Positions 469-29,423 of a stretch of 29,423 nucleotides of DNA are shown here, in pieces. Made by a program: the position numbers and the translations under genes. The first letter of the stretch is position 1. Each line of letters opens with the position of its first letter. Under the pieces are notes generated by a model. The model made no database searches and was not told where the DNA came from. It saw nothing but the letters and a program-made list of their open reading frames with translations. The stretch comes from a virus (Duplodnaviria; Caudoviricetes): IMG/VR virus record IMGVR_UViG_3300037311_000442, positions 1 through 29,423 of that record, one strand, 5' to 3'.

Positions 469-520
469 GGGTCCTTCCCAAGCCGAACCTATACGGGGAC
501 GCTTGGCGTGGCATTTCGCC
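469..520 (+). other. Putative lambda-like cos site (cosQ 469-475, cosN-like 491-511)
   Basis: GGGTCCT is identical to lambda cosQ. It is followed by ATACG-GGGACGCTTGG-CGTGG-CATTTCGC, versus lambda TTACG-GGGCGGCGACCT-CGCGG-GTTTTCGC, upstream of a gpA-type terminase. Confidence 0.7.
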
Positions 521-576: not shown

Positions 577-1170
577 ATGAAAGTCGAATTACTCGACCTC
601 AAAAAACTTGTGCCTTACGCCCGAAACCCAAGGATTACCGCGCACGCGGTGGACAAGGTGGCGGCCTCCATCAAGGAGTTCGGATTCCGCCAGCCGATTG
701 TCGTGGATTCCGAAATGGTCATCATCGCGGGGCATACACGCTATCAGGCAGCGCAGAAGCTGGGCTTGAAGAAAGTGCCTGTGCATGTGGCGCAGGGTTT
801 GTCCGCCGAACAGGTGAAGGCATATCGCATTGCTGACAACCGCACTGGTGAGGAAGCGCAGTGGGATAACGAAATGCTCTCCCTCGAATTGGCTGATCTC
901 GACAACATGTCATTCGACAAAGCGGTGCTTGGCTTTGAAGCGGCGGAATTGGAGCAGCTGCAGAAAAGCCTCGAAAGCCTACTGACCGACGGCATTGATG
1001 ACGACGAGGAAAAGCCCATCGACGAAGCCGACACCCGCGCAACCATCGGACCCTACAGCTTTGAGATTCCCCGCGAACGATACCTCGCATGGATTGAGGA
1101 AGTGAAACAGGAAGTCGGCTTCGACAAGGAAGCCATTGTCCACGAACTGAAAAAGAGGCTCAGCTTATGA
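577..1170 (+). CDS. ParB/Srx N-terminal domain protein (phage packaging-associated type)
   Basis: LVPYARNPR, SIKEFGFRQPIVVD, IIAGHTR, YRIADNR. SD GGAG (567-570) precedes ATG 577. No methyltransferase domain follows, only an acidic linker and short C-terminal domain. Confidence 0.88.
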   Translation: MKVELLDLKKLVPYARNPRITAHAVDKVAASIKEFGFRQPIVVDSEMVIIAGHTRYQAAQKLGLKKVPVHVAQGLSAEQVKAYRIADNRTGEEAQWDNEMLSLELADLDNMSFDKAVLGFEAAELEQLQKSLESLLTDGIDDDEEKPIDEADTRATIGPYSFEIPRERYLAWIEEVKQEVGFDKEAIVHELKKRLSL

Positions 1171-2681
1171 AACTGATCGACATTGATAGCCTGAACCCGT
1201 CCACCTACAACCCGCGCACCGCAGATCCTCGCCGCCTCGATTTGATTGAGCTGTCGCTTCGCAAGCTGGGCTTTCTCCTGCCCATCTATGCCACGCCCGA
1301 CGGCGAAATCATCTCTGGTCACCAGCGGCATCATGTGGCGAAGCGGCTGGGCGTGAAACAAGTGCCAGTGGAGTTCACCAGGGCGATGGATTTGGAGGAG
1401 CGCAAAGGCGTGAACGTCGCCTTCAACCGCGCCACCAATGATTTGCGCCCGAAGGATACGCCCGAGAATATCACCGATGCGCTGGCGCGGGTGGATGTGA
1501 AGGCGATTGCGGCGGCAATTCCTGACAAAACGCCTGACACGCCCGAGTTCTACCCGTGCCTGAAGGCGCAGGTGATGCCGATTGCGCCATTGCTCAAAGC
1601 CAACAAAGGCCGCTGGATCACCTATGCCACCAGCATTTCCAAGACGCTTTACCTCAAAGGCGTGCTGATGCCCGTGGTTGCCACCAAAGACCTGCGCGTG
1701 GTGAACGGCATTGGCCGCTTGCAGATGCAGGCGGAATCCAAACGCTCTGATGTGGCGGTGGTATTGGTGACCGAGGACGAAGCGCGGCTGGCCGATGCCA
1801 TGCTGAACCTGCTCTCGATGGATTTTGACATTCATAATCGTTACCGCGACCTGCTGCGCTACAATTCATTCCGCCGCCTGCGCCGCGTGCGCGAGGATCT
1901 GGGGCGTGGGTTTATTTTCGCGGTGGCTGGCAACAGCACGTCAAAGGATTTTGATGTGACCGAGCCGAAGAACCGCGACAAGTGGATGAAGGAACACGGC
2001 AAGTCGGTGCTGGATTTCGGCGCGGGGCATTTGCATGAAACGCAAATCCTGCGTTCCATCGGCGTGCGCGTCACTTCGTTTGAGCCATACCGCGTGAATG
2101 AGTCGGAGGAAATCGACAAGGCGGAATCGCTCCGCGTGGTGGATGAGTTCCTTGCCGATGTTGGTGATCGCAAAATCCCCTACAATTCGGTGTTCATCTC
2201 AAGCGTGCTGAATAGCGTGCCGTTTGAGGAAGATCGCAAGCACATCATTTGTCTGTGCGCCGCGCTCTGTTCTCCGCAAACGAAACTCTACGCGGTCGCC
2301 TCAAGTATCAACCACATCAACATTCGCCAGCTGAAAGGTTATAATTCCTTGAACGAACGGCAATCGACGGGGCGTGCCTTCCTGCTCGAATATGAATCGG
2401 GCATCACGCTGGGCGATATGACCAGCAGCCCGAAGGTGCAGAAGTACCATAGCCAGAACGAGTTCTATTGCCTGTTCAAAGAGTTTTTCGAGATCGTCCA
2501 GGTATCGGAGAGCAACAGCAACGTGCAGGCGGTATGTGCGAGGCCGAAACCGATTGATTACAAAAAGTTGAACGCAGCACTCGAGTTTGAATTCGATTTA
2601 CCCTATCCTGATGGCAGCAGGATGGGGCGTGTAATTGATGCAAAACGCGCTTTCTCCGAGCGAACGGGACTTGTGCTATGA
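1167..2681 (+). CDS. Tandem ParB-like domains fused to a class I SAM-dependent transferase domain
   Basis: ParB1 (YNPR, LGFLLPIY, IISGHQR), ParB2 (GVLMPVVA, VVNGIGR), then VLDFGAG, FEPY, SSVLNSV, QKYHSQ. ATGA overlap with the upstream gene. Confidence 0.75.
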   Translation: MKLIDIDSLNPSTYNPRTADPRRLDLIELSLRKLGFLLPIYATPDGEIISGHQRHHVAKRLGVKQVPVEFTRAMDLEERKGVNVAFNRATNDLRPKDTPENITDALARVDVKAIAAAIPDKTPDTPEFYPCLKAQVMPIAPLLKANKGRWITYATSISKTLYLKGVLMPVVATKDLRVVNGIGRLQMQAESKRSDVAVVLVTEDEARLADAMLNLLSMDFDIHNRYRDLLRYNSFRRLRRVREDLGRGFIFAVAGNSTSKDFDVTEPKNRDKWMKEHGKSVLDFGAGHLHETQILRSIGVRVTSFEPYRVNESEEIDKAESLRVVDEFLADVGDRKIPYNSVFISSVLNSVPFEEDRKHIICLCAALCSPQTKLYAVASSINHINIRQLKGYNSLNERQSTGRAFLLEYESGITLGDMTSSPKVQKYHSQNEFYCLFKEFFEIVQVSESNSNVQAVCARPKPIDYKKLNAALEFEFDLPYPDGSRMGRVIDAKRAFSERTGLVL

Positions 2682-3106
2682 TACTTTTGCTCGATCTTAA
2701 CTACACGCTGGTGGAAAACAGCGATGATAAACGCCGCCCTTTCATAAAACAGATCGAGGCAGAGCAATATCGTCGCTGGCTGGTGGAGTTAATCAGGCCG
2801 CATCACGTCATCATGATGACAGCGCGGCCTGCGATGCACCGAGAAGCAACACTTGCGAGCATTAGCGCAAAAACCGCCTGGTTACCCCAGGAAGCGCATT
2901 TCAATGTTTACGGGCTTACACCCCCGTTGGCAAAGGAACGGATGCTTGCGGAGCATGTGCTGCCTAAACATGGTCAAAGTATTGGCGGCGGGGCAACATT
3001 CCTCGCTATCGAAAGCAACCCAAGAACCCACGCAATGTATGCACGCTATGGCATTCGGTCGGTGAAGATCGAACCAGGTGAGCGTTGGGACGCATTACCC
3101 GAGTAA
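2678..3106 (+). CDS. Divergent HAD-superfamily protein resembling the T4 PNKP 3'-phosphatase domain
   Basis: Motif I LLDLNYTL, motif II MTAR, motif III K (LAKERML), motif IV LAIESNP. ATGA overlap with the upstream gene. Confidence 0.7.
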   Translation: MILLLDLNYTLVENSDDKRRPFIKQIEAEQYRRWLVELIRPHHVIMMTARPAMHREATLASISAKTAWLPQEAHFNVYGLTPPLAKERMLAEHVLPKHGQSIGGGATFLAIESNPRTHAMYARYGIRSVKIEPGERWDALPE

Positions 3107-3111
3107 ACATC

Positions 3112-3759
3112 ATGGATATTCCCCGCGAGTGGACGTTCGAGAACACGAAAGTGGCCTCGGGCTTCGATAGGCATGTGCGCGAGCAACTGCCTTGGTATGA
3201 TTTGGTCACTGGTGCGGTGGCGCATATCGCCCGTCATTACATCCCCAAAAATGGGCTGGTGTATGACATCGGCGCGTCCACTGGCAACATTGGCCAAGCG
3301 ATTGAAGAAACGATAGTTGAGCGCAAAGCCAAGCTGGTGGGTATCGAATCCAGCGCGGAAATGTGCGCGAGGTATAAAGCCCCTGGTGATTTGGTGCAGA
3401 TCGACGCGCTTGATTATCGCTTCCAGCCTTATGACTTGGCGATTTGCTATCTGGTGTTGATGTTTCTGCCCGTCGGCAAACGGCAGGAGTTTATCGACTA
3501 TCTGAAATCCCTCATCAAGCCAGGTGGTGCGCTGCTGATTGTAGATAAATGCGAAGCGGCCACGGGCTATGAAGCGACCGTGTTCTGGCGGCTGACACTG
3601 GCAGGAAAGATTGCCGCTGGTGTGGATGCACAAAGCGTCATCGCTAAAGAACTGAGTCTATCAGGCGTACAACGACCGCTCGACCCCGCCATGCTGGGTG
3701 ACGATGCAGTGCAATGGTTCCGCTTCGGCGATTTCGCTGGGTGGATCGTGACTAAATGA
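3112..3759 (+). CDS. CmoA-like SAM-dependent enzyme (carboxy-SAM synthase family, divergent)
   Basis: EWTFENTKVASGFDRHVREQLPWY, VYDIGASTG, IESSAEM, KPGGALLIVDK and WFRFGDF align by eye with E. coli CmoA [50 protein letters not shown] and WFQCFNF. Confidence 0.82.
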   Translation: MDIPREWTFENTKVASGFDRHVREQLPWYDLVTGAVAHIARHYIPKNGLVYDIGASTGNIGQAIEETIVERKAKLVGIESSAEMCARYKAPGDLVQIDALDYRFQPYDLAICYLVLMFLPVGKRQEFIDYLKSLIKPGGALLIVDKCEAATGYEATVFWRLTLAGKIAAGVDAQSVIAKELSLSGVQRPLDPAMLGDDAVQWFRFGDFAGWIVTK

Positions 3760-3769
3760 GAAAAATATC

Positions 3770-4315
3770 ATGCAACTTTTATACAAAGTCGCCGTCATTG
3801 CGCGGTTCTTGAACTTGACGGAACGGCGCGTGCAGCAGCTCGCTCGTGATGGCATCATCCCGAAACCAGAAAAGGGAAAATACGATCTGGTGGGATGTGT
3901 TCAAGGTTATATCGGCTACCTGCAAGCCCGTGCTTTTGGCAAGGACACTGGCACGGTGGATATGTACGCCGAACGCGGCAGGCTTCTCAGGCTGCAAGCC
4001 GATAGAGCGCAAATGGAACTGGATATGATGCGTGCAAGGCTCATTTCCGCAGATGAAGCGGAGGAACTTTGGGCAAGTCTGCTGGCCACCTTTCGCGCAC
4101 GAATGCTCGCTGTACCAACCCGTGCGGCGCACCTGGTGCTTCATCTCAAGGAGTTTTACGCGATCGAACAGAGCCTGCGCGATCTGGTGTGCGACGCATT
4201 AACGGAACTCGCACGCTATGACCCAGAGCAACAAATCAGGCCAGAAGGCGTTGAAACGCGCACTGAAACACTTGAAGCCCCCGCCGAGGCTGAAGGTGAG
4301 CCAGTGGGCGGATGA
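3770..4315 (+). CDS. Terminase small subunit (Nu1-like)
   Basis: N-terminal winged HTH (IARFLNLTERRVQQL...GKYDL), coiled coil (ERGRLLRLQADRAQM), position directly before gpA. Confidence 0.88.
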   Translation: MQLLYKVAVIARFLNLTERRVQQLARDGIIPKPEKGKYDLVGCVQGYIGYLQARAFGKDTGTVDMYAERGRLLRLQADRAQMELDMMRARLISADEAEELWASLLATFRARMLAVPTRAAHLVLHLKEFYAIEQSLRDLVCDALTELARYDPEQQIRPEGVETRTETLEAPAEAEGEPVGG

Positions 4316-6080
4316 ATACCGCTTTCTAAGCAGCGAAGCCAGCGCAGAACCTGGCAAATGGCACACCGACCGCGCCCCGTACCAGCGGGAAATGATGGAT
4401 GCAGTGAACGACCCCCGCACCGAGATGGTGGTCATCATGTCATCGGCGCAGGTGGGCAAAACGGAGATTATTAACAACATCATCGGTTACAACGTCCATC
4501 TCGACCCGTCGCCGATTCTACTGTTACAGCCAACGCTTGAGATGGCGGAAGCATGGAGCAAAGACCGCTTCGCGCCCATGCTGCGGGACACTTACGTTTT
4601 GAAAGGATTGGTGAAAGACCCGCGCACTCGGGATTCTGGCAACACGTTACTGCATAAGCGTTTCCCTGGTGGCCACATCACGATGGCGGGGGCGAATTCG
4701 CCTGCATCACTGGCCTCGCGCCCAATTCGGCTAGTGCTGTGTGATGAAGTGGATCGCTATCCTGTGTCAGCAGGCACGGAAGGTGACCCCGTTAGCTTGG
4801 CAAAAAAGCGCACCACGACCTTTTGGAATCGCAAGATTCTGCTGACTTCCACCCCCACCATTAAGGGGGCAAGCAGGATTGAAGCGGCATTCGAGCAAAG
4901 CGATCAGCGGCGGTTTTATGTGCCTTGCCCTCATTGCGGGGAAACGCAAACGCTGAAATGGCAACAGGTTAGATGGGAGCAAACCGAAAAGAAGGATGGT
5001 GAGGAAAAGCACCAGCCTGAAACCGCTGCCTATGTCTGCGAGCATAACGGCTGCATCATCACCGATGCAGAAAAAGCCGACATGCTGGTGAAGGGCGAAT
5101 GGATTGCCGAAGCTCAGTTTAACGGCGTAGCGGGGTTTCACCTCAACGAGCTTTACAGCCCGTGGGTGACCTTCACGCAGATGGTGGCGGAGTTCTTAAA
5201 AGCCAAGAAGCTGCCTGAAACCCTCAAAACATGGGTGAATACCTCGCTTGGTGAAACGTGGGAGGAAAGCGGCGAAAGCGTGGAAGCAGATGTGCTTCTT
5301 CAGCGCAAAGAAAGTTGGGGCAATGACGCGCCCGAACCTGTGGTGCTGGTCACTGCTGGGGTGGACGTACAAGGTGACCGACTGGAGATTGAAGTCAAAG
5401 GCTGGGGCTTGGGTGAAGAATGCTGGTCACTGGATTACCGCGTGTTTTACGGTGATCCAGCGCAAAGCATGGTGTGGCAGGAACTGGATGCGTATCTGCT
5501 GCAACCTATCCGCAGCAAGCTGGGCGTGAATCTGAATATCGCCTGCGTGTGCGTGGACTCTGGCGGTCACCATACGCAAGCGGTGTATGAGTTTTGTGGT
5601 GCGCGTGCGGTGCGCGGCGTGTTCGCTATCAAAGGGATCAGCCAAACGGCGAAACCTCTGGTGGGACGGCCGAGCAAAAACAACCGCTACAAGCTCAGGC
5701 TCTATCCTATCGGCACGGATACGGCGAAGGAAGTCATCTTCAGCCGCCTTCGGCTCACCGAGCCTGGGGCGGGTTACTTCCATTTTCCGCTGGAACGTGA
5801 CCGCGAGTATTTCTTGCAGCTGACGGGTGAGAAGCAAGTCACGCGCTTTGCAAAAGGTGTTTCAAAACGGGAATGGATTAAAACCCGCGCCCGAAATGAG
5901 GTGCTGGACTGCACGGTGTATGCGCTCGCGGCCTTCAAGCTACTCAATCCAAACCTCGCCAAGCTCGCCGAGGATTTGGAAAACGCGCCGCGCATCGTGG
6001 CAGAGCCGACGGATCAGGACAGTAAAAACCAACCAAACCAAGCGTGGATTCCACGCATGGACAACTGGCTATCGAGGTAA
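4218..6080 (+). CDS. Terminase large subunit (lambda gpA family)
   Basis: PPRLKVSQWAD, RAPYQRE, Walker A SAQVGKT, Walker B VLCDEVD, TSTPT, CPHC zinc motif, nuclease GVDVQ / VDSGG / NEVLDC. Confidence 0.97.
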   Translation: MTQSNKSGQKALKRALKHLKPPPRLKVSQWADEYRFLSSEASAEPGKWHTDRAPYQREMMDAVNDPRTEMVVIMSSAQVGKTEIINNIIGYNVHLDPSPILLLQPTLEMAEAWSKDRFAPMLRDTYVLKGLVKDPRTRDSGNTLLHKRFPGGHITMAGANSPASLASRPIRLVLCDEVDRYPVSAGTEGDPVSLAKKRTTTFWNRKILLTSTPTIKGASRIEAAFEQSDQRRFYVPCPHCGETQTLKWQQVRWEQTEKKDGEEKHQPETAAYVCEHNGCIITDAEKADMLVKGEWIAEAQFNGVAGFHLNELYSPWVTFTQMVAEFLKAKKLPETLKTWVNTSLGETWEESGESVEADVLLQRKESWGNDAPEPVVLVTAGVDVQGDRLEIEVKGWGLGEECWSLDYRVFYGDPAQSMVWQELDAYLLQPIRSKLGVNLNIACVCVDSGGHHTQAVYEFCGARAVRGVFAIKGISQTAKPLVGRPSKNNRYKLRLYPIGTDTAKEVIFSRLRLTEPGAGYFHFPLERDREYFLQLTGEKQVTRFAKGVSKREWIKTRARNEVLDCTVYALAAFKLLNPNLAKLAEDLENAPRIVAEPTDQDSKNQPNQAWIPRMDNWLSR

Positions 6081-17297: not shown

Positions 17298-17349
17298 TGA
17301 TAAAAGGGCAGCAAGGATTAAAATAGATATTTATCAGATGATTGACCGC

Positions 17350-17392
17350 CTTCCTTGCAATTCCGAACTTCAAGTTGTGAATTGCAAGGAAG
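17350..17392. repeat. Perfect 14-bp inverted repeat with inner 5-bp repeat
   Basis: CTTCCTTGCAATTC-N15-GAATTGCAAGGAAG; the spacer contains AACTT-C-AAGTT. Confidence 0.9.
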
Positions 17393-17408
17393 ATATGAGA
17401 TGTTTCTC

Positions 17409-17470
17409 TATAATCCCCACTTTATTGCATAAAGTGCTTTATTATCCCCGAATTATTGCGTATAATGGGG
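17409..17470 (+). promoter_or_regulatory. Putative fic promoter/operator region
   Basis: TATAAT at 17409-17414 and 17461-17466; palindrome CACTTTAT-TGC-ATAAAGTG at 17418-17436. No well-spaced consensus -35. Confidence 0.5.
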
Positions 17471-17485
17471 TATGGAGTGAGGTTT

Positions 17486-18997
17486 ATGCCCGAATTGTCG
17501 CCAAAGCTGCCCGAGGTGATTGTTTCCGACGCGACGACGACGGAGATGGTGTCGCGCAGCGTGAAAAGTGGAAAGCTGCGAAAGCTGGCTTCCCGTCTTT
17601 ATACGACGAATTTGACCGATGCACCAGAAGCGATTGTGAAACGTAATCTCTGGCAAATCATCGGGCAGTTTGTGCCAGAAGCCTTGATTGCAGATCGCAC
17701 CGCCTTGGAATTGAAGCCTGCGCCAGATGGTTCGATATTTATTATCTCGGATCGCAAGCGCGACATTGAACTGCCTGGTGTCACTATCAGGTCGCGCAAA
17801 GGCGTTGCGCCATTGCCAGATGACAAGCCGTTCATGGATGGCCTGCGCCTTTGTTCTCAGGCTCGGGCGTATCTAGAAAATATGCGTATCTCACGCCCAC
17901 GCGAGGGCAGCGCACCGCGCACGCTTTCAAGGCAGGAGATTGAAGAAAAACTGGATGTGATTCTTAGGCGTTCTGGCGATACCGCCATAAAACAACTGCG
18001 TGACGAAGCGCGAAAACTTTCGCGCACGCTGGAGTTGGAGAAAGAATTCAAGCAGCTGGATGATTTGATAGGCACATTACTCGGCACACGAGATGAACCT
18101 GTAGTGTCAAAAACTGGTATCGCACGCAAAAAGGGAGAGCCTTACGACCCTGACCGCCTACAATTGTTTGAAGTCCTACACCGCGCCTTGCATGAAACAC
18201 CACCGATCACGCGGCCTGCGCCTGTGGTCACAGAAACGCTCGCGTTTTACGAAGCCTATTTCTCAAACTTCATTGAAGGCACCGAGTTTGCCGTGAGTGA
18301 AGCGGAAGAAATTGTCTTTGAAGGCAAAGTGCCAAACGACCGTCCTGCTGACGCGCATGACGTTCTGGGAACCTATCAGATTGTTGCCGATACCAAAGAA
18401 ATGCAGAGAATACCGAAGCGTTTTGAGGATTTCCTGACGCTATTGAAGCAGCGTCACGCGGTTATCATGGCGAAGCGGCCTGAGAAATTACCAGGGCGGT
18501 TTAAGGTGGAAGGCAACCGCGCAGGCAGCACATTGTTTGTTGCGCCTGAACTGGTGGAAGGTACGCTGAAAAAAGGATTCGAACTTTATCAAAGCCTTGA
18601 TGCGCCGTTTCATCGCGCAGTTTTTATGATGTTTCTGGTGGCCGAGGTGCATCCGTTCGCGGATGGTAACGGACGTATCGCACGCATTATGATGAACGCC
18701 GAATTAGTGGCAGGAAACGAGCAGCGTATTATCGTGCCAACGGTTTATCGAAACAATTATCTGGTGGCACTCAAGGCACTGACACATAATCAGCAGCCGC
18801 AAGCCCTAGTACGCACGCTCGATTTCGCGCAGCGTTACACGGGGAAAGTGGATTGGAGCGACAAACATATCAGCCAGCGCATTCTGGAAGCTACCTATGC
18901 GTTTGTTGATCCGACAGAAGCAGATTTGCAGGGCATACGATTGACATTGCCCGATGACACCCTGATTGCCGACATCAAGGCTAGGCATGATTTATAA
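17486..18997 (+). CDS. Fic family protein with N-terminal extension (class II-type, inhibitory motif present)
   Basis: Canonical HPFADGNGRIAR; upstream SNFIEG fits (S/T)xxxE(G/N). GGAG/GAGG precedes ATG 17486. Confidence 0.93.
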   Translation: MPELSPKLPEVIVSDATTTEMVSRSVKSGKLRKLASRLYTTNLTDAPEAIVKRNLWQIIGQFVPEALIADRTALELKPAPDGSIFIISDRKRDIELPGVTIRSRKGVAPLPDDKPFMDGLRLCSQARAYLENMRISRPREGSAPRTLSRQEIEEKLDVILRRSGDTAIKQLRDEARKLSRTLELEKEFKQLDDLIGTLLGTRDEPVVSKTGIARKKGEPYDPDRLQLFEVLHRALHETPPITRPAPVVTETLAFYEAYFSNFIEGTEFAVSEAEEIVFEGKVPNDRPADAHDVLGTYQIVADTKEMQRIPKRFEDFLTLLKQRHAVIMAKRPEKLPGRFKVEGNRAGSTLFVAPELVEGTLKKGFELYQSLDAPFHRAVFMMFLVAEVHPFADGNGRIARIMMNAELVAGNEQRIIVPTVYRNNYLVALKALTHNQQPQALVRTLDFAQRYTGKVDWSDKHISQRILEATYAFVDPTEADLQGIRLTLPDDTLIADIKARHDL

Positions 18998-20140
18998 AGA
19001 TGCAAGAATCACTCCCAGCAATCCGCTGGTTAAAATGACCAAGGGAATACCCCATCTTTTCTTGATGAGATAAAGTGCGGTCAGTGCTGCGATAAACAAT
19101 ACAGCTTGCTGCCAGCCCGTAACCACATGGCGGAAAATATCAAGCGCAGTGATTGCTAGCAGTCCAACAACAGCAGCGGAAACACCATCGAGCGCACCGT
19201 GAAGTGCACGATTCTCGATGATTCTTTCAAGGTAGTTATGTCCCACTAGCGTAAAGGCAAAGGCAGGAAGAAAAATGCCTAATGTCATCAAGAGTGCGCC
19301 AGTCAAACCATCGGTGATGTAGCCGAGGTAAGTGCCAAAAATAATCAATGGCGCGGGAATGACGCTGCCAAGGGCAATACCATCGAGAAATGTTTGCTGC
19401 GTGATTCCAGGATATACGCCGACCATGCTGTGCTGAAGAAATGGAATTGCAGTGTAGGCACCGCCGAAGGAAAGCAATCCCGCCTTCAACCCTTCGATAA
19501 GCAAACCGCCGCCGCCAGCTACGGAGGGGGCGGATGATAATGGCAACAATGTAGTAACGGCAAATGCCGCAAGGCTTGCTGTTACAAGTACGCCCACAGC
19601 CAAATGCTTACGACCCGCTGCCCATAATGATTGCCAAGCAGCGCAGATCAAGAACACAAATAAGAAATGTACGCCTAGCAGCGTCAGTAGAATGGAACTG
19701 CCAGCAGCCACCCAAAGTGAAGTGCCAGTCAGAACATGGCTACCGATGCGATGTGCCGCACGCACAATCAAGGCGGTAACGGCTGGCGCGATACCAACAA
19801 AAAGCGGCAACAAAACGGCTGCACCGAAAGAAACATACGCCCATGAGAGCAGGAGCATGAATAATAATCCAGGCAACATAAAACCAAGACCAGCAAGAAA
19901 ACCGCCCCATCGGCCTGCGCGGATCATACCAAAATAGACACAAAGTTCATGCGCCTCTGGACCAGGCAATGCTTGGTAAACAGCAAGTGCGCGACGGAAT
20001 TTCTCTGGAGTAATCCAGCGTTGATTATCTACGAGTTCATCTTTCAGCATGGAAATTTGTGCGACGGGACCACCCCAGGCAAGCAAGCCAAACCTTAGAA
20101 AAATTACAAAAATGGAAAACAGAGATTCTTCTTTTTTCAT
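18992..20140 (-). CDS. chrA: Chromate transporter, long-chain CHR family
   Basis: Two homologous hydrophobic halves: FGLLAWGGPVAQ...QALPGP and GLLSFGGAY...VIPAP. Start at 20140 (alternatively 20152). Confidence 0.92.
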   Translation of the reverse strand: MKKEESLFSIFVIFLRFGLLAWGGPVAQISMLKDELVDNQRWITPEKFRRALAVYQALPGPEAHELCVYFGMIRAGRWGGFLAGLGFMLPGLLFMLLLSWAYVSFGAAVLLPLFVGIAPAVTALIVRAAHRIGSHVLTGTSLWVAAGSSILLTLLGVHFLFVFLICAAWQSLWAAGRKHLAVGVLVTASLAAFAVTTLLPLSSAPSVAGGGGLLIEGLKAGLLSFGGAYTAIPFLQHSMVGVYPGITQQTFLDGIALGSVIPAPLIIFGTYLGYITDGLTGALLMTLGIFLPAFAFTLVGHNYLERIIENRALHGALDGVSAAVVGLLAITALDIFRHVVTGWQQAVLFIAALTALYLIKKRWGIPLVILTSGLLGVILASL

Positions 20141-20152
20141 AAGGACAAGCAT

Positions 20153-20605
20153 ATGGCAGATCGAACAAAAAACAACATAGTAATCCAAGCCCGAACATGG
20201 ATCGGCACACCGTTTCACCACCAGGCACGATTGAAGGGCAAAGGCTGTGACTGCCTCGGCCTGATTGTCGGCGTGGTGGATGAGTTGAGCTTGAAGGATA
20301 AGCACGGCCAGCCGCTCGCGGGTTATGACGAGGTGACCTATTCCAAAGAGCCAGACGGTGCGTATCTCACCGAGAAGCTCACGGCGTTGCTGGATGAAGT
20401 GCCGATAGCCGAGGCGCAGGCAGGTGATCTGGCCTTGTTCAAGGTGCGCGAGAACCCACAGCACATGGCATTTCTCACCGATTATGAAAACACGCTGGGG
20501 ATGGTTCATTCCTACGCGCCAGCCCGTCGGGTGGTGGAACACCGCCTCGATGATGACTGGAAACAACGACTTGTGAAGGTATTCAGATGGCAGCCATCGT
20601 TCTAG
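20153..20605 (+). CDS. NlpC/P60 cell-wall peptidase (GTA-like tail gene)
   Basis: ARTWIGTPFHHQ, GCDCLGL, QHMAF, MVHSY; SD AAGGA at 20141-20145. Confidence 0.95.
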   Translation: MADRTKNNIVIQARTWIGTPFHHQARLKGKGCDCLGLIVGVVDELSLKDKHGQPLAGYDEVTYSKEPDGAYLTEKLTALLDEVPIAEAQAGDLALFKVRENPQHMAFLTDYENTLGMVHSYAPARRVVEHRLDDDWKQRLVKVFRWQPSF

Positions 20606-23600
20606 CAGCCGCCGCAAGTTCTGCGGCCTCATCTATCGGCGCGGGGGCATTTGCCGCAGCGTTGGCGGGTGGTGTAGGTGGATATTTGGGCGGGTTTATT
20701 GACCGTTCCATTTTCGGCAGCAAGGCACGCATCAATCAGGAAGGTTCGCGCCTGACGGATTTGATGGTGCAGGCTTCCACCTATGGCAAGTCGATTCCCG
20801 TAGTCTATGGCAACGCCCGTATTGCGGGAAACGTGATCTGGTCGCGCCCGATTCAGGAGCATGTCACCACCACAACGCAATCCTCGGGCGGTGGTAAAGG
20901 CGGCGGTGGTAGTGGCGGCGTGGAAACCACCACCACGACCTACACCTACACGGCAAGCCTTGCGGTGGCGATTTGTGAAGGTGCGATCAGCGAAGTGGTA
21001 CGCGTATGGGCAGATGCAAAGCAGCTTGACCTAACGGCTGGCAGCTATTCGCTCTATCTCGGTGACGAAACGCAGCTGCCCGACACGTTTATGTCGTCTT
21101 TCTATCCTGCTGGGCAAACGCCAGCCTATCGCGGCACGGCCTATGTGGTGATTAAGGATTTCCCGCTGGGGGATTTTGGCAACCGCATTCCGAATTTTAC
21201 CTTTGAGGTGCGTCGCACGCTGAAAAAGCCCTTCGACCTTGAGGACAAAATCAAGGACATCACCATCATCCCAGGGGCGGGTGAGAATGTGTATGACACG
21301 GTGGTGCAGGAGAAAACCAGCGGCCAGCAAGATGTATCAGGCAATTTCATTCAAGGTGGCAAGGTCACCAAAATGAACCTGAATAACCTCAATAATAAAG
21401 CCGATGCGCTGGTGGCACTCGATAACCTGAAAGCCAACCTGCCCAATGTGGAATGGGTGTCGGTGGTGGTGAACTGGTTTTCGGATTCCGCAGATCCTGC
21501 GGTGAGCATTATCAAGCCAGCGGCGGAGTTTAACAGCCAAGGCGCACGGGTCGCGCCCGATGACTGGGCGGTGGCAGGATTTAACCGCAACAACGCGCAT
21601 GTGATTTTAACTTTTCCTGATGGTTCGCCCACTTATGGCGGCACGCCGACGGATAAAAGCATCATCCGCTTGTGCCAGGAATTGAAGGCGCGTGGCTACA
21701 AGGTGCTGTTTTACCCGATGGTGCAAGTGGACACCATCACGCCACAGCCAAAACCGTGGCGCGGCAGGATTACACCGACCAATGCCACGGATGCGGCCAA
21801 CTTCTTCACCCGCACCAATGGCTACAATGCGTTCATCAACTGGTATGCCAGCCTGAATGTGGGCGGCGTGCTGCTTAAGAACAATATCGACGCTTTCATG
21901 ATCGGCTCGGAGTTGGTGGGTTTAACCACCTACATGAGCAGCGCAGGCGTATTCCCAGCGGTGACGCAGCTTAAGAACCTCGCGGCCTCGGTGAAAACTG
22001 CCGTCGGCGCAGGCGTAAAAGTCATGTATGGCGCGGATTGGAGCGAGTACCACTCGGTGAATGGCTGGTATCATCTCGATCCGCTGTGGTCGGATTCCAA
22101 TATCGACGTGGTGGCGATTGATTGCTATTTCCCCCTCACGCCTGATTTGCCACAAAGCCAGATTGACTATGCCGCTGTGTATGCTGGCTGGACGAAAGAC
22201 GAAGGCTGGGATTATTATTGGGACGGCACACGCACCACGAAAACCTTCTATTCAGGCGCAACATTCGCCTGGAAGAACGTAAAGAACTGGTGGAATAGCA
22301 CTCACACGAATCCTGATGCCAGCGGCACGGCGTGGACGGCCAAGATGAAACCCGTGTGGTTTTCGGAGATTGGCTTTCCTTCGGTGGATGGATGCGCCAA
22401 CCAGCCCAACGTGTTCGTTGACCCTGACTCGGTAGAAAGTTTCTATCCTCGGGGTTCGCGCTCGCGTGTGGATTTTCTGGCGCAGCGCACCGCGCTCGAT
22501 GCCTCGATTGACTATCTCAATGCGGAGAACGCGCTGGAAGCCAATTTCATTCCGCGCAAATTCGTGTGGACATGGGATGCACGGCCGTTCCCATTTTTCC
22601 CCGATCTCGGTTCGGTATGGGCAGACGGGAGCAACTGGAAAACAGGCCACTGGGTGCAAGGCAAGCTGGGGCTTTCGAGCCTCGGCCAGATCGTCGCCGA
22701 CCTGCTGAAAAAGGTGGGTTACGACAACACCATGTATGACACCAGCCGTCTGACGGATATTGTGTCGGGCTTTATCGTGAGCAACAGGCAAACGGTGCGT
22801 GCGTGTTTGGAGCAATTAACCTCGGCTTATTTCTTCGACATGGTGGAATCGGACGGGCTGCTGAAGTTCATCAAGCGGGGCAAAGTTTCCAACACCACGC
22901 TGGATTTTTCGGAACTTGTGCCGCGTGATGATGCGATTGAAACCTTCACCATCACCCGCACGCAGGAACTGGAATTGCCGCGCCAGGTGGATGTCATTTA
23001 TCTGAACCGCACGGCGGATTATCAGGCTGGCACGCAATCCTCGCAGCGGCAAACCGTCAAAGCGGTGGATTATGCCACAGTGAACCTGCCAATTGTGCTT
23101 TCCGATCAGGAAGCCAAGGTGGTGGCGGATGTGACGCTCTACAATGTTTGGGTGGGGCGCGTGCAGTACCAGTTCACCGTGCCGCCAAAATATGCGCTGC
23201 TTGAGCCGACCGACGTGATTACCATCACGAAGGATGGCGCGTCGTATGTCATGCGGATCAATTCCACGAAGCTGGTGCGAAACGGGATGCAGGAACTCAC
23301 AGCGGTGGCTGAAGATGTGTCATCCTATGATTTCTACAATCCCGCAGGCACTGGCACGCCGAACATTCAACCGCCGACGAGCATTTCCGCCACGCGGCTG
23401 GAATTGCTCGACTTGCCTGCATTCCCCATCGATGCGGTGACGGATGCGTATTTGCGCTATGGCGTGGTGGGTTTGGGTGGTGACTGGACGGGTTCGGCGG
23501 TTTACCGTTCGGATGATGGCGGGGCAAACTATGCCTTGATGCAAACGCTCACGGCGCAGGCCACTATCGGCGCGGTGCTGAATATCATCCCTGCGGGGAC

Positions 23601-25841: not shown

Positions 25842-26402
25842 ATGACTGAAGAAACGACAATTATTCCAGTTCCTGATGATCTGATTCAAAACTGGCCAGA
25901 GGATGTGTGTCGTGAGTTAATGACTGCAATCAACCAGTCACTGGCAACTACATCCTACCTTGCCAACAAACAGCCAGTCACATGTGGTGATGTGGTTGTG
26001 TGTGGCAGCCGTGTATGCGGGGGTTATACTCCCACGTCCGATTTGGATGTAGTGGTGTATATCAACGATTACGTCCCACCAGAATTACCAGGGCGCAGCT
26101 ATTACCGACACCGCCTGGTCGTCAAATTCCGCAATCTGAAAATGGATTTATGGCTACGCTGCAACGACGATAAAGAGCTTGGCATATTCCCAGGACATCC
26201 TGATGCACCGACACCGCTGGGCTGGCGGCTACCCTATTATTCGCTCGTCAATAAGACAGTCAATCAAGTCTATGCCGACGAGATAGAGGACTATCTTCGA
26301 TTTATGTACAGCATGAAGCCCAGGCTCAATTCGCCTGAGCGACGATGGGATAAACTCATAGTCCCCATAACCCTGCCATTTCAACCAACCACCGCCCTTT
26401 GA
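25842..26402 (+). CDS. Nucleotidyltransferase (DNA pol-beta superfamily, MNT-like)
   Basis: VVCGSRVCGGYTPTSDLDVVV fits hG[GS]-x-DhD; third Asp candidate in KMDLW. Confidence 0.78.
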   Translation: MTEETTIIPVPDDLIQNWPEDVCRELMTAINQSLATTSYLANKQPVTCGDVVVCGSRVCGGYTPTSDLDVVVYINDYVPPELPGRSYYRHRLVVKFRNLKMDLWLRCNDDKELGIFPGHPDAPTPLGWRLPYYSLVNKTVNQVYADEIEDYLRFMYSMKPRLNSPERRWDKLIVPITLPFQPTTAL

Positions 26403-27103: not shown

Positions 27104-27540
27104 GACACATTTCCCAGCAAGGACTTGATCTGATTTGCCGCTTCGAGGGCTTTTCGCCGATCATTTACATGTGTCCAGCTGGGTATCCCACGATTGGTTA
27201 TGGTCACCTGATTACCGAAGCCAACAAAGAGCAGTTCTTGGACGGGATTGACGAGGATGAAGCCCTCGATCTGCTACGACAGGATGTCGCAGTGGCAGAA
27301 CGTGCTGTGCTGCGCTTGATTAGCGTACCACTCACTCAAGGGAAGTTCGACGCACTGGTATCGTTTACCTTCAACCTTGGTGCGGGTGCGCTTCAACGCT
27401 CCACGCTCCGCCGCAAGGTCAACCGCGAAGAACATGCCGACGTGCCTGCTGAACTCATGAAATGGGTGTGGGCTGGTGGCAGGAAACTACGCGGGTTGGT
27501 CAAACGGCGCGAGACGGAAACTATGCTTTACAAAACCTAA
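27100..27540 (+). CDS. Endolysin, GH24 lysozyme
   Basis: E16-x8-C25-x5-T31 triad (FEG...C...TIGYGH), FDALVSFTFNLG, GLVKRR. Confidence 0.95.
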   Translation: MRHISQQGLDLICRFEGFSPIIYMCPAGYPTIGYGHLITEANKEQFLDGIDEDEALDLLRQDVAVAERAVLRLISVPLTQGKFDALVSFTFNLGAGALQRSTLRRKVNREEHADVPAELMKWVWAGGRKLRGLVKRRETETMLYKT

Positions 27541-29423
27541 ATCTCTAAGCCTTTCGAGACCTCAGTATATTTTCTACAAATTTGCCGATATGCCTCGACT
27601 AGATCTGGCAGGGTTGGAATTTTCTCAAGATTCTTTGGGTCAAGAAAATCTGTATCTAGCTCGATGCCCTTCTTCTCAGCAAGCCTGCCCAACTCCTGCC
27701 TCATATGCTTAAGTAACGTCGGACCATGCTCTGGTAAGAAAGAATAGTCTGGCTCTTTTCCTTCCTCTGCCAAATCCTTCCGTAATTGCTCATCGAACTT
27801 TGAGCCTGGCAGGAATATAATCGACGATGATTCCATCGGGAGCAAGCTGCGATAATAGATATGCGCGGTATTGATGTTATCGTCGCTGATCTGCGCTGTA
27901 ATTGAAACAGGGCTTGCATAACCTTCTGCGCTGGCAACATGTGGATTCTGATAAGTGATGGAGTGCCGCTCCGGAATGATGCTCCCGTAGGTGTGATAAT
28001 GTGCGCTACCTCCCACAATATCTTTTCCTGCTTCATGGATTGGTTCATAAAGCATGGATGATAATCCTCTGGCCGAGCGCACAATACAGACAGGAACAGA
28101 ATCTTTGTGATTCTCTTCAAGGTTTTTCATGATGCTTTTTTTGACATTCGTAGGAATCAGGCTGGCGATGTAGAGTATATCGGTAGGGATGTATCTCACA
28201 TCCTCGTTATCACGAGACTGGAATTCACCATCAGCAAAAGTGTAGTGAGAGTGCCCTAGCTTAAAATTCTGACCACGGTGCTTCAGTCGTTCCGCTTCAT
28301 TTTTTCGTGGTCCGCCATAATGCACTTGGTTGCCGTCTTCAATATAAATGCTTACGGCCTCCCGTTTTAGGACACCCAAAAGCTCAAGGTGATTTCTCAA
28401 CTTCCGAGATAGCTCAACCGCTTCTGGATCGGAGTCGATTAGATTAACTTTGCAGCCAGAAATAATGTGGTTCACAAAACCTGTTAAAGGAAGCGCACCG
28501 CTTCCAACAAACGTCATATATTTTTCCTTAAGGTCTTCTACCCCGAAAATGTCTGGATTAATTGCTTTAATCTGTTTGCCTCTTTTTGTTATTCCTTCAG
28601 GATCGTTCGGCGGCAATGTGACTTTTTGTAAGTTTGTTTGCAAACTCTTGGGAAAGTTTCCGTGACCAGCTGGATTTTCAATCAGATGTTTTTCACCATA
28701 AGCTAGATGTTCATAGTTGTGAGTATAGGGAAATGGCTTGATGGCTTCATCTAGTCGGAACAGTCGTCGTGCTGTCTTAATATCATCCGCAAGTGCTTTA
28801 TCAGCTGTATCCGCTGGAACAATCAGCTTCATTTTTTCATGTTCATCATAACGCTCTGTGAATCGTTTCCCTGATTTCTCGAGATAGTCTTTTACCCGTC
28901 CTTCAGCATCATGCTTGATTTCTGATATTGCCTGCTCCGATATTCTTACAGAACCGTTATAGCGTTCTTCGATGCGCTCTAATGCTTTACGGGCATAGAA
29001 CTTTTCCATTTCACCTTCTGAATACGCGCTGATTAACGGGATGCTCTTTAGTTTCTCACGGTAGTCAGGATTTGCATTTGCAATGTCAAAGAAACTTTTA
29101 ACTACTCCCTCATCATAAGATTGAAGGCATATCTCCACCAACTCGGACAGTGCTTTATTGACCGTAGGGCATGGATCAAGTGCTCTGGCGCCGCTTATTT
29201 TGTGACCTTCTTCATCTGTGAAAAATGGCTCCTCCCCACGAGTTACGGTATCCATGAACGCATCATCCCACTTCTTATGTTTGGTGTAAGCGTTCCAGCG
29301 TTCTTCAATTTGCGCGTATATGCCTTCAGGTGCGAATACCCGATTCACAAGCTCTTGTGCTGTAAGTTGGCTTTTCTCGTTTTTTCGATAGGGTTTAAGT
29401 AGCGGTGATTTACGGTTAGTCAT
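27537..29423 (-). CDS. Nicotianamine synthase-like SAM-dependent aminocarboxypropyl transferase with insertions
   Basis: FPYTHNYEHL, FVGSGALPLT, IDSDPEA, DILYIASL and VRSARGLSSMLY match NAS motifs FPYxxNY, FIGSGPLPLT, D.D..A, DVVFLAAL and RSAHGxRxFLY. Confidence 0.78.
   Translation of the reverse strand: MTNRKSPLLKPYRKNEKSQLTAQELVNRVFAPEGIYAQIEERWNAYTKHKKWDDAFMDTVTRGEEPFFTDEEGHKISGARALDPCPTVNKALSELVEICLQSYDEGVVKSFFDIANANPDYREKLKSIPLISAYSEGEMEKFYARKALERIEERYNGSVRISEQAISEIKHDAEGRVKDYLEKSGKRFTERYDEHEKMKLIVPADTADKALADDIKTARRLFRLDEAIKPFPYTHNYEHLAYGEKHLIENPAGHGNFPKSLQTNLQKVTLPPNDPEGITKRGKQIKAINPDIFGVEDLKEKYMTFVGSGALPLTGFVNHIISGCKVNLIDSDPEAVELSRKLRNHLELLGVLKREAVSIYIEDGNQVHYGGPRKNEAERLKHRGQNFKLGHSHYTFADGEFQSRDNEDVRYIPTDILYIASLIPTNVKKSIMKNLEENHKDSVPVCIVRSARGLSSMLYEPIHEAGKDIVGGSAHYHTYGSIIPERHSITYQNPHVASAEGYASPVSITAQISDDNINTAHIYYRSLLPMESSSIIFLPGSKFDEQLRKDLAEEGKEPDYSFLPEHGPTLLKHMRQELGRLAEKKGIELDTDFLDPKNLEKIPTLPDLVEAYRQICRKYTEVSKGLEI

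Follow-up and report, generated by a model that had tools for sequence, protein, structure and literature searches.

A candidate carboxy-SAM-dependent DNA modification cassette with a ParB-fused transferase beside phage terminase genes

The closest described system to the locus presented here is CmoA-CmoX-CmoY of Synechococcus phage S-B43, published in December 2025 (PMC12783734). In S-B43, a phage CmoA makes carboxy-SAM (SAM, S-adenosylmethionine), and CmoX, a C5-type methyltransferase with an SPPC motif and Arg350, makes 5-carboxymethylcytosine, to which CmoY adds glycine to give the glycine amide. According to the same source, N6-adenine and N4-cytosine carboxymethyltransferases were also sought beside phage cmoA genes, no candidates were found, and such enzymes were left to engineering. 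The subject of this article is a four-gene cassette at positions 577-3759 of IMG/VR virus record IMGVR_UViG_3300037311_000442 (Duplodnaviria; Caudoviricetes), which may write a related mark by means of a different transferase. The window, that is, the whole stretch of DNA analyzed (29,423 nucleotides), is the complete provirus record, estimated to be 65% complete as a genome.

Other described systems resemble parts of the cassette. CmoB, the class I enzyme of the CmoA-CmoB pathway to cmo5U in tRNA, moves a carboxymethyl group from carboxy-SAM to a heteroatom, and its Tyr200 contacts that group (PMC4482062). The same fold and type of transfer are proposed for gene 2 of the cassette, which differs in being ParB-fused, phage-encoded and not an orthologue of CmoB. 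Beside phage terminases, a ParB protein and a ParB-fused methyltransferase with the hallmark [DNSH]PP[YFW] have been predicted to modify DNA during packaging (PMC4738411). In the window, a ParB gene and the modifying enzyme likewise adjoin the terminase, but the hallmark is absent and the locus is coupled to cmoA. Finally, a two-domain phage ParB activates its cognate thymine dioxygenase (PMC13229309). Like that protein, gene 1 has a ParB nucleotide-binding domain, a C-terminal domain and no DNA-binding domain, whereas the enzyme and the chemistry differ and activation is here deduced from gene distribution.

The likeness to S-B43 is the closest. A phage CmoA would supply carboxy-SAM, ParB genes lie nearby, and phages with CmoX have in common with the window both the short CmoA clade and a ParB-transferase-cmoA-terminase frame. 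However, gene 2 is not a C5 methyltransferase, CmoY is absent, and the window has an extra ParB tail domain and a gene resembling T4 polynucleotide kinase-phosphatase (Pnkp). The cassette would work like CmoA-CmoX without being a member of that system, using a non-homologous replacement transferase. In the preferred reading, gene 4 makes carboxy-SAM and gene 2 carboxymethylates phage DNA at a nitrogen or oxygen, an addition that probably protects the DNA against host nucleases; the probability of this reading is put at about 0.62.

The original prediction, made from the sequence of the stretch, did not recognize the four-gene combination as a described system. This stands for the transferase: no description of the gene-2 family was found in the literature, although one older survey of DNA modification may mention it and the CmoX supplements are perhaps not text-searchable, and the family motifs did not appear in the supplement of PMC4738411. 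It does not stand for the principle, because a phage CmoA feeding a DNA carboxymethyltransferase had already been published (PMC12783734). The gene-2 family is a candidate for an N6-adenine or N4-cytosine carboxymethyltransferase that searches with known methylase motifs would miss. If the reading is true, the cassette provides a new natural DNA modification, with a carboxyl handle for DNA labeling at a new position, the first function for a widespread uncharacterized clade of transferases and a system in which ParB activators can be tested.

Gene layout, the CmoA homologue and its partners

The cassette and the features that flank it are as follows (aa, amino acids):

577-1170 (+): gene 1, 197 aa; ParB nucleotide-binding domain (PF02195, E 3.7e-10), acidic linker and C-terminal domain at about aa 150-197
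1167-2681 (+): gene 2, 504 aa; ParB, ParB-like and class I SAM-dependent transferase domains
2678-3106 (+): gene 3, 142 aa; capless HAD fold, T4 Pnkp 3'-phosphatase-like
3112-3759 (+): gene 4, 215 aa; CmoA homologue of the short clade
3770-4315 and 4218-6080 (+): terS and terL, lambda gpNu1/gpA type (phrog_57, E 8e-28; PF05876, PF20454)
469-508 (+): cos-like site with a cosQ/cosN-like layout, like the lambda genome ends

The open reading frames confirm the close coupling first noticed in the sequence, with ATGA overlaps at 1167 and 2678 and gaps of 5 nt (3107-3111) and 10 nt (3760-3769), as well as the placement of the four genes between the cos-like site (469-508) and terS, which begins at 3770.

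Gene 4 matches the CmoA model TIGR00740 (E 3.7e-14). Its SAM-binding and CmoA-specific residues are present, together with DxGxSxG, and Tyr39, Lys165 and Lys198 occur in 58/58 sequences of the short clade. In a maximum-likelihood tree, gene 4 and the CmoA of Moraxella phage Mcat8 form one clade (support 100/100), and the neighbor of the Mcat8 cmoA bears SPPC and Arg350. Identity to 70 CmoX-linked CmoAs ranges from 41 to 61%, with a common signature. The partners of short CmoAs were counted in the best 80 of 525 viral stretches fetched with an alignment of the clade. CmoX with Arg350 was found in 69 of the 80 (SPPC visible in 68) and the gene-2 enzyme in eight. This ratio depends on the query, of which the Mcat8 protein was a part, and six of the eight repeat earlier contigs. 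Both enzymes together were found in none and no visible transferase in three; CmoY was present in 36 stretches, and gene 3 in four, each time alongside gene 2. Because of its clade, its signature and the CmoX partnership, gene 4 most likely makes carboxy-SAM. A separate case is a Staphylococcus SPbeta-like phage (L045, 4989-6688), in which cmoA lies beside a C5 methyltransferase that has neither SPPC nor an Arg350 that aligns clearly and that may be a third type of CmoA partner.

Homologues of gene 2 of at least 440 aa were found in 147 loci, of which the 123 with at least 2.5 kb downstream were kept and 24 dropped; as the loci are redundant, clusters at 80% identity (n = 30) are the better count. 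A cmoA-like gene accompanies gene 2 in 118/123 loci and 29/30 clusters, across several phyla, and gene 3 does so in 113/123 loci, so that the neighborhood search suggested with the original prediction finds the genes conserved together. The partnerships of CmoA with gene 2 (118/123) and with CmoX (69/80) also sustain the earlier proposal that the CmoA-like enzyme makes a SAM analogue. By profile search, terL is present in 98/123 loci, and other terminase types occur in further clusters. C5 methyltransferases occur in 8/123 loci. A neighboring CmoX was ruled out as the reason for cmoA: these enzymes carry Asn at the Arg350 position (5/5 distinct sequences), so true CmoX is found in 0/123 loci, as is CmoY. 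Of the five loci without an intact cmoA, L004 and L057 are clean deletions, L058 is a fragment, and L086 and L092 gave no terminase match. The genome bin of L057 holds a canonical cmoA elsewhere, over the cut-off, and no cmoA was detected at E 1e-8 in the records of the other four.

Neighbors of gene 2 in two lineages belong to the prephenate pathway: a DAHP synthase-chorismate mutase (7 loci, one cluster) and a DAHP synthase (phage HJ05). Together with a nucleosidase-family gene near gene 2 in 3 loci, these genes point to prephenate supply. Within 6 kb upstream of gene 2, L033, L036 and L038 carry a second cmoA, a nucleosidase-family gene and a DAHP synthase-chorismate mutase fusion. The gene-2 family comprises 195 clusters at 50% identity (E <1e-30), and its cultured carriers include Gordonia phage Evaa, Pseudomonas phage SM1 with its relatives, and Aeromonas phage HJ05; E. 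coli genomes gave no DNA match to the cassette of a relative. SM1 (L043, 8271-11041) and HJ05 (L044, 3389-6321) have two genes in common after cmoA, encoding a helix-turn-helix protein and a protein of 643-652 aa without a Pfam match, which could extend the modification.

The transferase and its companion proteins

The strongest argument for the cofactor and substrate of gene 2 is its exchange with CmoX in one gene slot. Contig L280 encodes homologues of genes 1-4 (identity 42, 49, 56 and 62%), and its CmoA is 98.6% identical to that of three CmoX loci. At the DNA level, it matches the CmoX loci L287, L294, L291 and L278 over the ParB head (88-92%) and over cmoA and the terminase (89-94%). Between these stretches, where the CmoX loci have their ParB tail and CmoX, with or without CmoY, L280 carries another ParB tail followed by genes 2 and 3. 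The CmoA tree requires four partner changes, two of them forced by supported branches, and the CmoAs of Evaa (gene 2) and TurkishDelight (CmoX) are sisters (100/100). Gene 2 appears to occupy the slot of a proven carboxy-SAM-dependent DNA enzyme. Because it is exchanged with CmoX beside the same ParB head, cmoA and terminase, it most likely uses carboxy-SAM and is likely a carboxymethyltransferase. By this position and by co-occurrence, the group-transferring role first assigned to the ParB-fused enzyme is strengthened to that of a likely acceptor-modifying transferase.

Gene 2 matches phrog_5475 (E 2e-111), with matches to ParB_N (E 1e-4) and Methyltransf_23 (E 8e-4) that are both under the cut-off. 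Its AlphaFold2 model has a predicted local distance difference test score (pLDDT) of 91.5. A second ParB-like domain at about residues 135-215 is suggested by a conserved VNGxxR motif and predicted secondary structure (profile match weak, E 0.14). Residues 224-463 are identified by predicted structure and structure search as a seven-stranded, Rossmann-like class I methyltransferase domain with the motifs DFGAG, FEPY, SSVLNSVP and PKVQK. The DxGxG residues of motif I (D283, G285, G287) are conserved, as is the acidic E306 at the end of strand 2. At strand 4, where SSVLNSVP stands, Asn349 is found in 102/108 and Pro352 in 108/108 sequences. As noticed earlier, gene 2 has no DPPY/NPPY or C5-type PC motif. 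SPPC and Arg350 are also absent, profile comparison with CmoX gives a probability of 0.08%, and the transferase domain of the family has no conserved catalytic cysteine. As a class I transferase that has neither the C5 cysteine nor a DPPY motif, gene 2 probably yields a product other than 5-carboxymethylcytosine.

Comparison with CmoB gives a weak local alignment from motif I to strand 4 (69 columns, probability 11.6%), in which Asn349 lies opposite Tyr200. Gene 2 does not match CmoB at Lys91, Tyr200 and Arg315 and is not its orthologue. The top 50 structural matches of the whole 504-aa model are generic class I enzymes throughout and include no DNA amino-methyltransferase, which does not exclude kinship. 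The sole match in NCBIfam is a faint one to TIGR04096 (1/26 gene-2 members, E 0.097), PADLOC gave nothing useful for gene 2, BFVD gave nothing close, and the ESM Atlas returned unnamed methyltransferases only. In the P0259 homologue, genes 1 and 2 are apparently fused.

A sister clade within phrog_5475, represented by E. coli phage 613R2, Bacteroides phage BS-TP3 and Brochothrix phage BtpYZU02, serves as a natural control enzyme for the cmoA-linked clade. Like gene 2, it consists of ParB, degenerate ParB and class I domains and carries the motifs xSVLNSV, QKxH and EFxLP. Unlike the window, its loci contain cmoA, gene 3 or the gene-1 tail domain in 0/92 cases, and its enzyme probably uses SAM. 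Position 345, at the end of strand 4, is Asp in 6/6 sister sequences, whereas among the 108 cmoA-linked sequences it is Ser in 64, Asn in 21 and Ala in 10. Compared with the sister clade, the cmoA-linked clade also gains Arg236 (94/108), Arg237 (85/108) and Lys423 (95/108). This loss of an acid and gain of bases would suit a carboxylated cofactor. Sister-clade (DSVLNSV) loci, such as L161 (1269-2642), L162 (4998-6419) and L163 (3320-4654), are very common in gut Bacteroides phages, and the enzyme of 613R2 is annotated as a nuclease.

The C-terminal domain of gene 1 occurs in 147/155 loci with a gene-2 match; one of these matches (L044) aligns poorly, and the domain is missing from SM1 and from seven loci that are truncated or broken. 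In the short-CmoA set, the domain is found in 8/8 gene-2 loci and 0/72 other loci, it is found in 0/92 sister loci, and in L280 it was exchanged together with the transferase. This co-segregation suggests that gene 1 likely activates or recruits gene 2 via a cognate C-terminal domain.

Gene 3 had been proposed as a possible helper of the CmoA-like enzyme. This role was rejected: gene 3 is found in 0/69 CmoX-cmoA loci as opposed to 113/123 gene-2 loci and therefore belongs with gene 2, not with cmoA. It resembles the T4 Pnkp 3'-phosphatase fold (5uj0; Foldseek E 7.6e-6, TM 0.74), and its HAD residues D6, T48 and K86 are invariant in 22/22 sequences, with ESN as motif IV. Motif I reads DLNYT and departs from DxDxT, the general-acid Asp being replaced by Asn8 in 109/110 sequences and by His in one. 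In T4 Pnkp, the D167N change leaves no monoesterase activity, and the 3'-phosphate end becomes trapped (PMC3592404). Gene 3 probably assists gene 2 by binding phosphate or by phosphotransfer rather than as a standard phosphatase. Its absence from 10/123 gene-2 loci, including SM1 and HJ05, suggests that it is dispensable. Compared with close relatives, gene 3 of the window has a 15-nt loop insertion near 2971, and L093, L094 and L096 carry two copies from its family, placed ahead of gene 1 and behind gene 2.

Proposed chemistry and competing explanations

In the proposed mechanism, gene 4 would convert SAM and prephenate into carboxy-SAM, a step for which orthology and partners argue strongly. 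Gene 2 would bind carboxy-SAM, a cofactor deduced for a fold that is itself well defined, and transfer CH2-COO- directly by an SN2 reaction with no covalent cysteine. The acceptor would be a DNA heteroatom; as a tentative best guess, an exocyclic amine would yield N6-carboxymethyladenine or N4-carboxymethylcytosine. Gene 1 would activate or recruit gene 2 through its cognate tail, and gene 3 would act as an accessory phosphate-binding or phosphotransfer subunit that is not essential. Taken over all acceptors, carboxy-SAM-dependent DNA modification elsewhere than at cytosine C5 is about as probable as the preferred reading itself. An exocyclic amine as acceptor falls somewhat short of an even chance, and a ring nitrogen or oxygen is improbable. 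The cassette probably writes an undescribed carboxymethyl mark on phage DNA. The fuller proposal is rated slightly better than even. It holds that gene 2 represents a second, independently evolved family of phage carboxy-SAM DNA alkyltransferases, swapping with CmoX and equipped with a cognate ParB activator and a disarmed Pnkp-like phosphate binder. Its mark, which no enzyme has yet been seen to make, would be a carboxymethyl phosphotriester, N6-carboxymethyladenine, N4-carboxymethylcytosine or a further base with an N- or O-carboxymethyl group.

As a special case of DNA carboxymethylation, carboxy-SAM might be used on the phosphate backbone or a DNA end. The product would be a carboxymethyl phosphotriester or an end cap, and gene 3 would hold a terminal phosphate close to cos. 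The Pnkp 3'-phosphatase fold of gene 3, with its natural equivalent of D167N (PMC3592404), suits this idea. So do the position of the cassette directly after cos and the missing amino-methyltransferase motif of gene 2, but gene 3 is dispensed with in SM1, HJ05 and eight further loci. No natural enzymic DNA phosphotriester is known to us. A phage-encoded CmoA, moreover, suggests bulk demand beyond two ends, by an argument taken from PMC12783734, and modification of the backbone or an end is as improbable as that of a ring atom. Transfer from carboxy-SAM to something other than DNA, such as tRNA of the host or the phage, a small molecule, or a protein of the virion or of packaging, deserves a little more weight, though it is still unlikely. 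The folds that match best are methyltransferases of RNA and small molecules (METTL6: Z 13.5, root-mean-square deviation 3.6, 195 aligned, tied with others), and the weak CmoB alignment (11.6%) with Asn349 opposite Tyr200 fits such an acceptor. However, gene 2 replaces a proven DNA enzyme one to one within the same ParB-cmoA-terminase frame, and it shares its fusion to ParB domains with phage DNA-modifying enzymes (PMC4738411, PMC13229309).

Only marginally behind in probability is an ordinary SAM-dependent methylase, with cmoA as a passenger or serving another purpose, e.g., draining SAM. The sister clade has the same architecture and no cmoA, L004 and L057 lost cmoA with gene 2 intact, and the L280 swap could have carried cmoA along passively. 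Against such a methylase stand the retention of cmoA in 29/30 clusters, in several CmoA lineages and under purifying selection, the complete lack of true CmoX in the 123 gene-2 loci that might otherwise account for it, and the prephenate-pathway genes nearby. The least probable explanation is that gene 2 makes 5-carboxymethylcytosine by another mechanism or alkylates a premodified base (e.g., a 5-hydroxypyrimidine, as CmoB does in tRNA). Its interchangeability with CmoX would agree with this, and CmoB is a class I precedent (PMC4482062). Nevertheless, the transferase domain has no conserved catalytic cysteine and no similarity to CmoX (0.08%), and no hydroxylase or glycosyltransferase was found among the 46 neighbor proteins scanned.

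Several observations weigh against the preferred reading, in which gene 2 carboxymethylates phage DNA with carboxy-SAM from gene 4. The exchange at the DNA level is known from one 4.4-kb metagenomic contig (L280), which is possibly chimeric. Intact cmoA is missing from 5/123 gene-2 loci, and in L004 and L057 it was cleanly deleted while the gene 2 motifs are unchanged. The amino-methyltransferase motif [DNSH]PP[YFW] (DPPY/NPPY) is absent after strand 4 of gene 2. For its transferase domain, no characterized relative was found (0 matches at E 10 in a PDB sequence search), and generic methyltransferases of small molecules and RNA tie for the nearest fold. The sister-clade control amounts to about five distinct types, with 81/92 loci near-identical, and Arg236, Arg237 and Lys423 could bind DNA instead of a carboxylate. 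Gene 4, a shortened protein, reaches 53 bits, far under the TIGR00740 cut-off of 193.3. In E. coli CmoA, Arg199 is a carboxylate ligand, and gene 4 has Glu at this position. However, the validated S-B43 CmoA and 70/70 CmoX-linked short CmoAs also have Glu; consequently, Arg199 is not defining for phage CmoA, and its loss was rejected as a sign of a non-CmoA. Among the non-short CmoA partners of gene 2, canonical CmoAs included, Arg199 is kept in 46/61.

The composition of the window also bears on protection. Over positions 1-29423 and both strands, CCGG avoidance is extreme (4 seen, 251 expected), and 6-bp palindromes such as GCGCGC (0 seen, 48 expected) and AAGCTT (0 seen, 23 expected) are avoided as well, which suggests restriction pressure. 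Because the window still avoids many palindromes, any protection by the mark would not be general, a further point against the preferred reading insofar as it suggests that the mark is not a general shield. The avoidance is common to the close relatives L001, L050 and L056 and not to most gene-2 loci, i.e., it is lineage-specific. No 3- or 4-mer depletion pattern specific to 28 gene-2 loci was found in comparison with 20 CmoX and 6 sister loci.

Surroundings of the cassette

A pattern built on the cos-like site occurs upstream in 26/127 loci (4 clusters), compared with 1/127 within gene 2 as a control, and the site at 469-508 may represent the left end of the packaged genome. Judging by gene order, modification may be coupled to packaging; the annotation of Pseudomonas phage SM1 shows no terminase within 6 kb. 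All four genes evolve under purifying selection, judging from ratios of nonsynonymous to synonymous substitution rates (dN/dS) of 0.02-0.05 in six scorable pairwise comparisons with dS near saturation, two further pairs being unscorable. The closest relatives (gene 2 97-100% identical) come mostly from bins labeled Alphaproteobacteria or Rickettsiales. The sequencing runs of DNA that contain the cassette stretch are mainly from freshwater and wastewater; contigs from RNA runs span parts of the cassette, and such contigs cannot demonstrate transcription.

A DUF3768 gene (1-381, -) is divergent from the cassette and occupies the same position in many close relatives. Within the tail module, at 17338-20632, lie genes for a Fic-domain protein (17456-18997, PF02661) and a chromate transporter (18992-20632, -, PF02417). 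The match of 20153-20605 to a minor tail protein profile is only partial, so this may be an interrupted tail gene in a defective provirus. Among the late genes is a nucleotidyltransferase gene (25842-26402, +, PF01909), and the open reading frame after the lysozyme gene (27537-29423, -) has a nicotianamine-synthase-like match (PF03059, E 3.6e-8).

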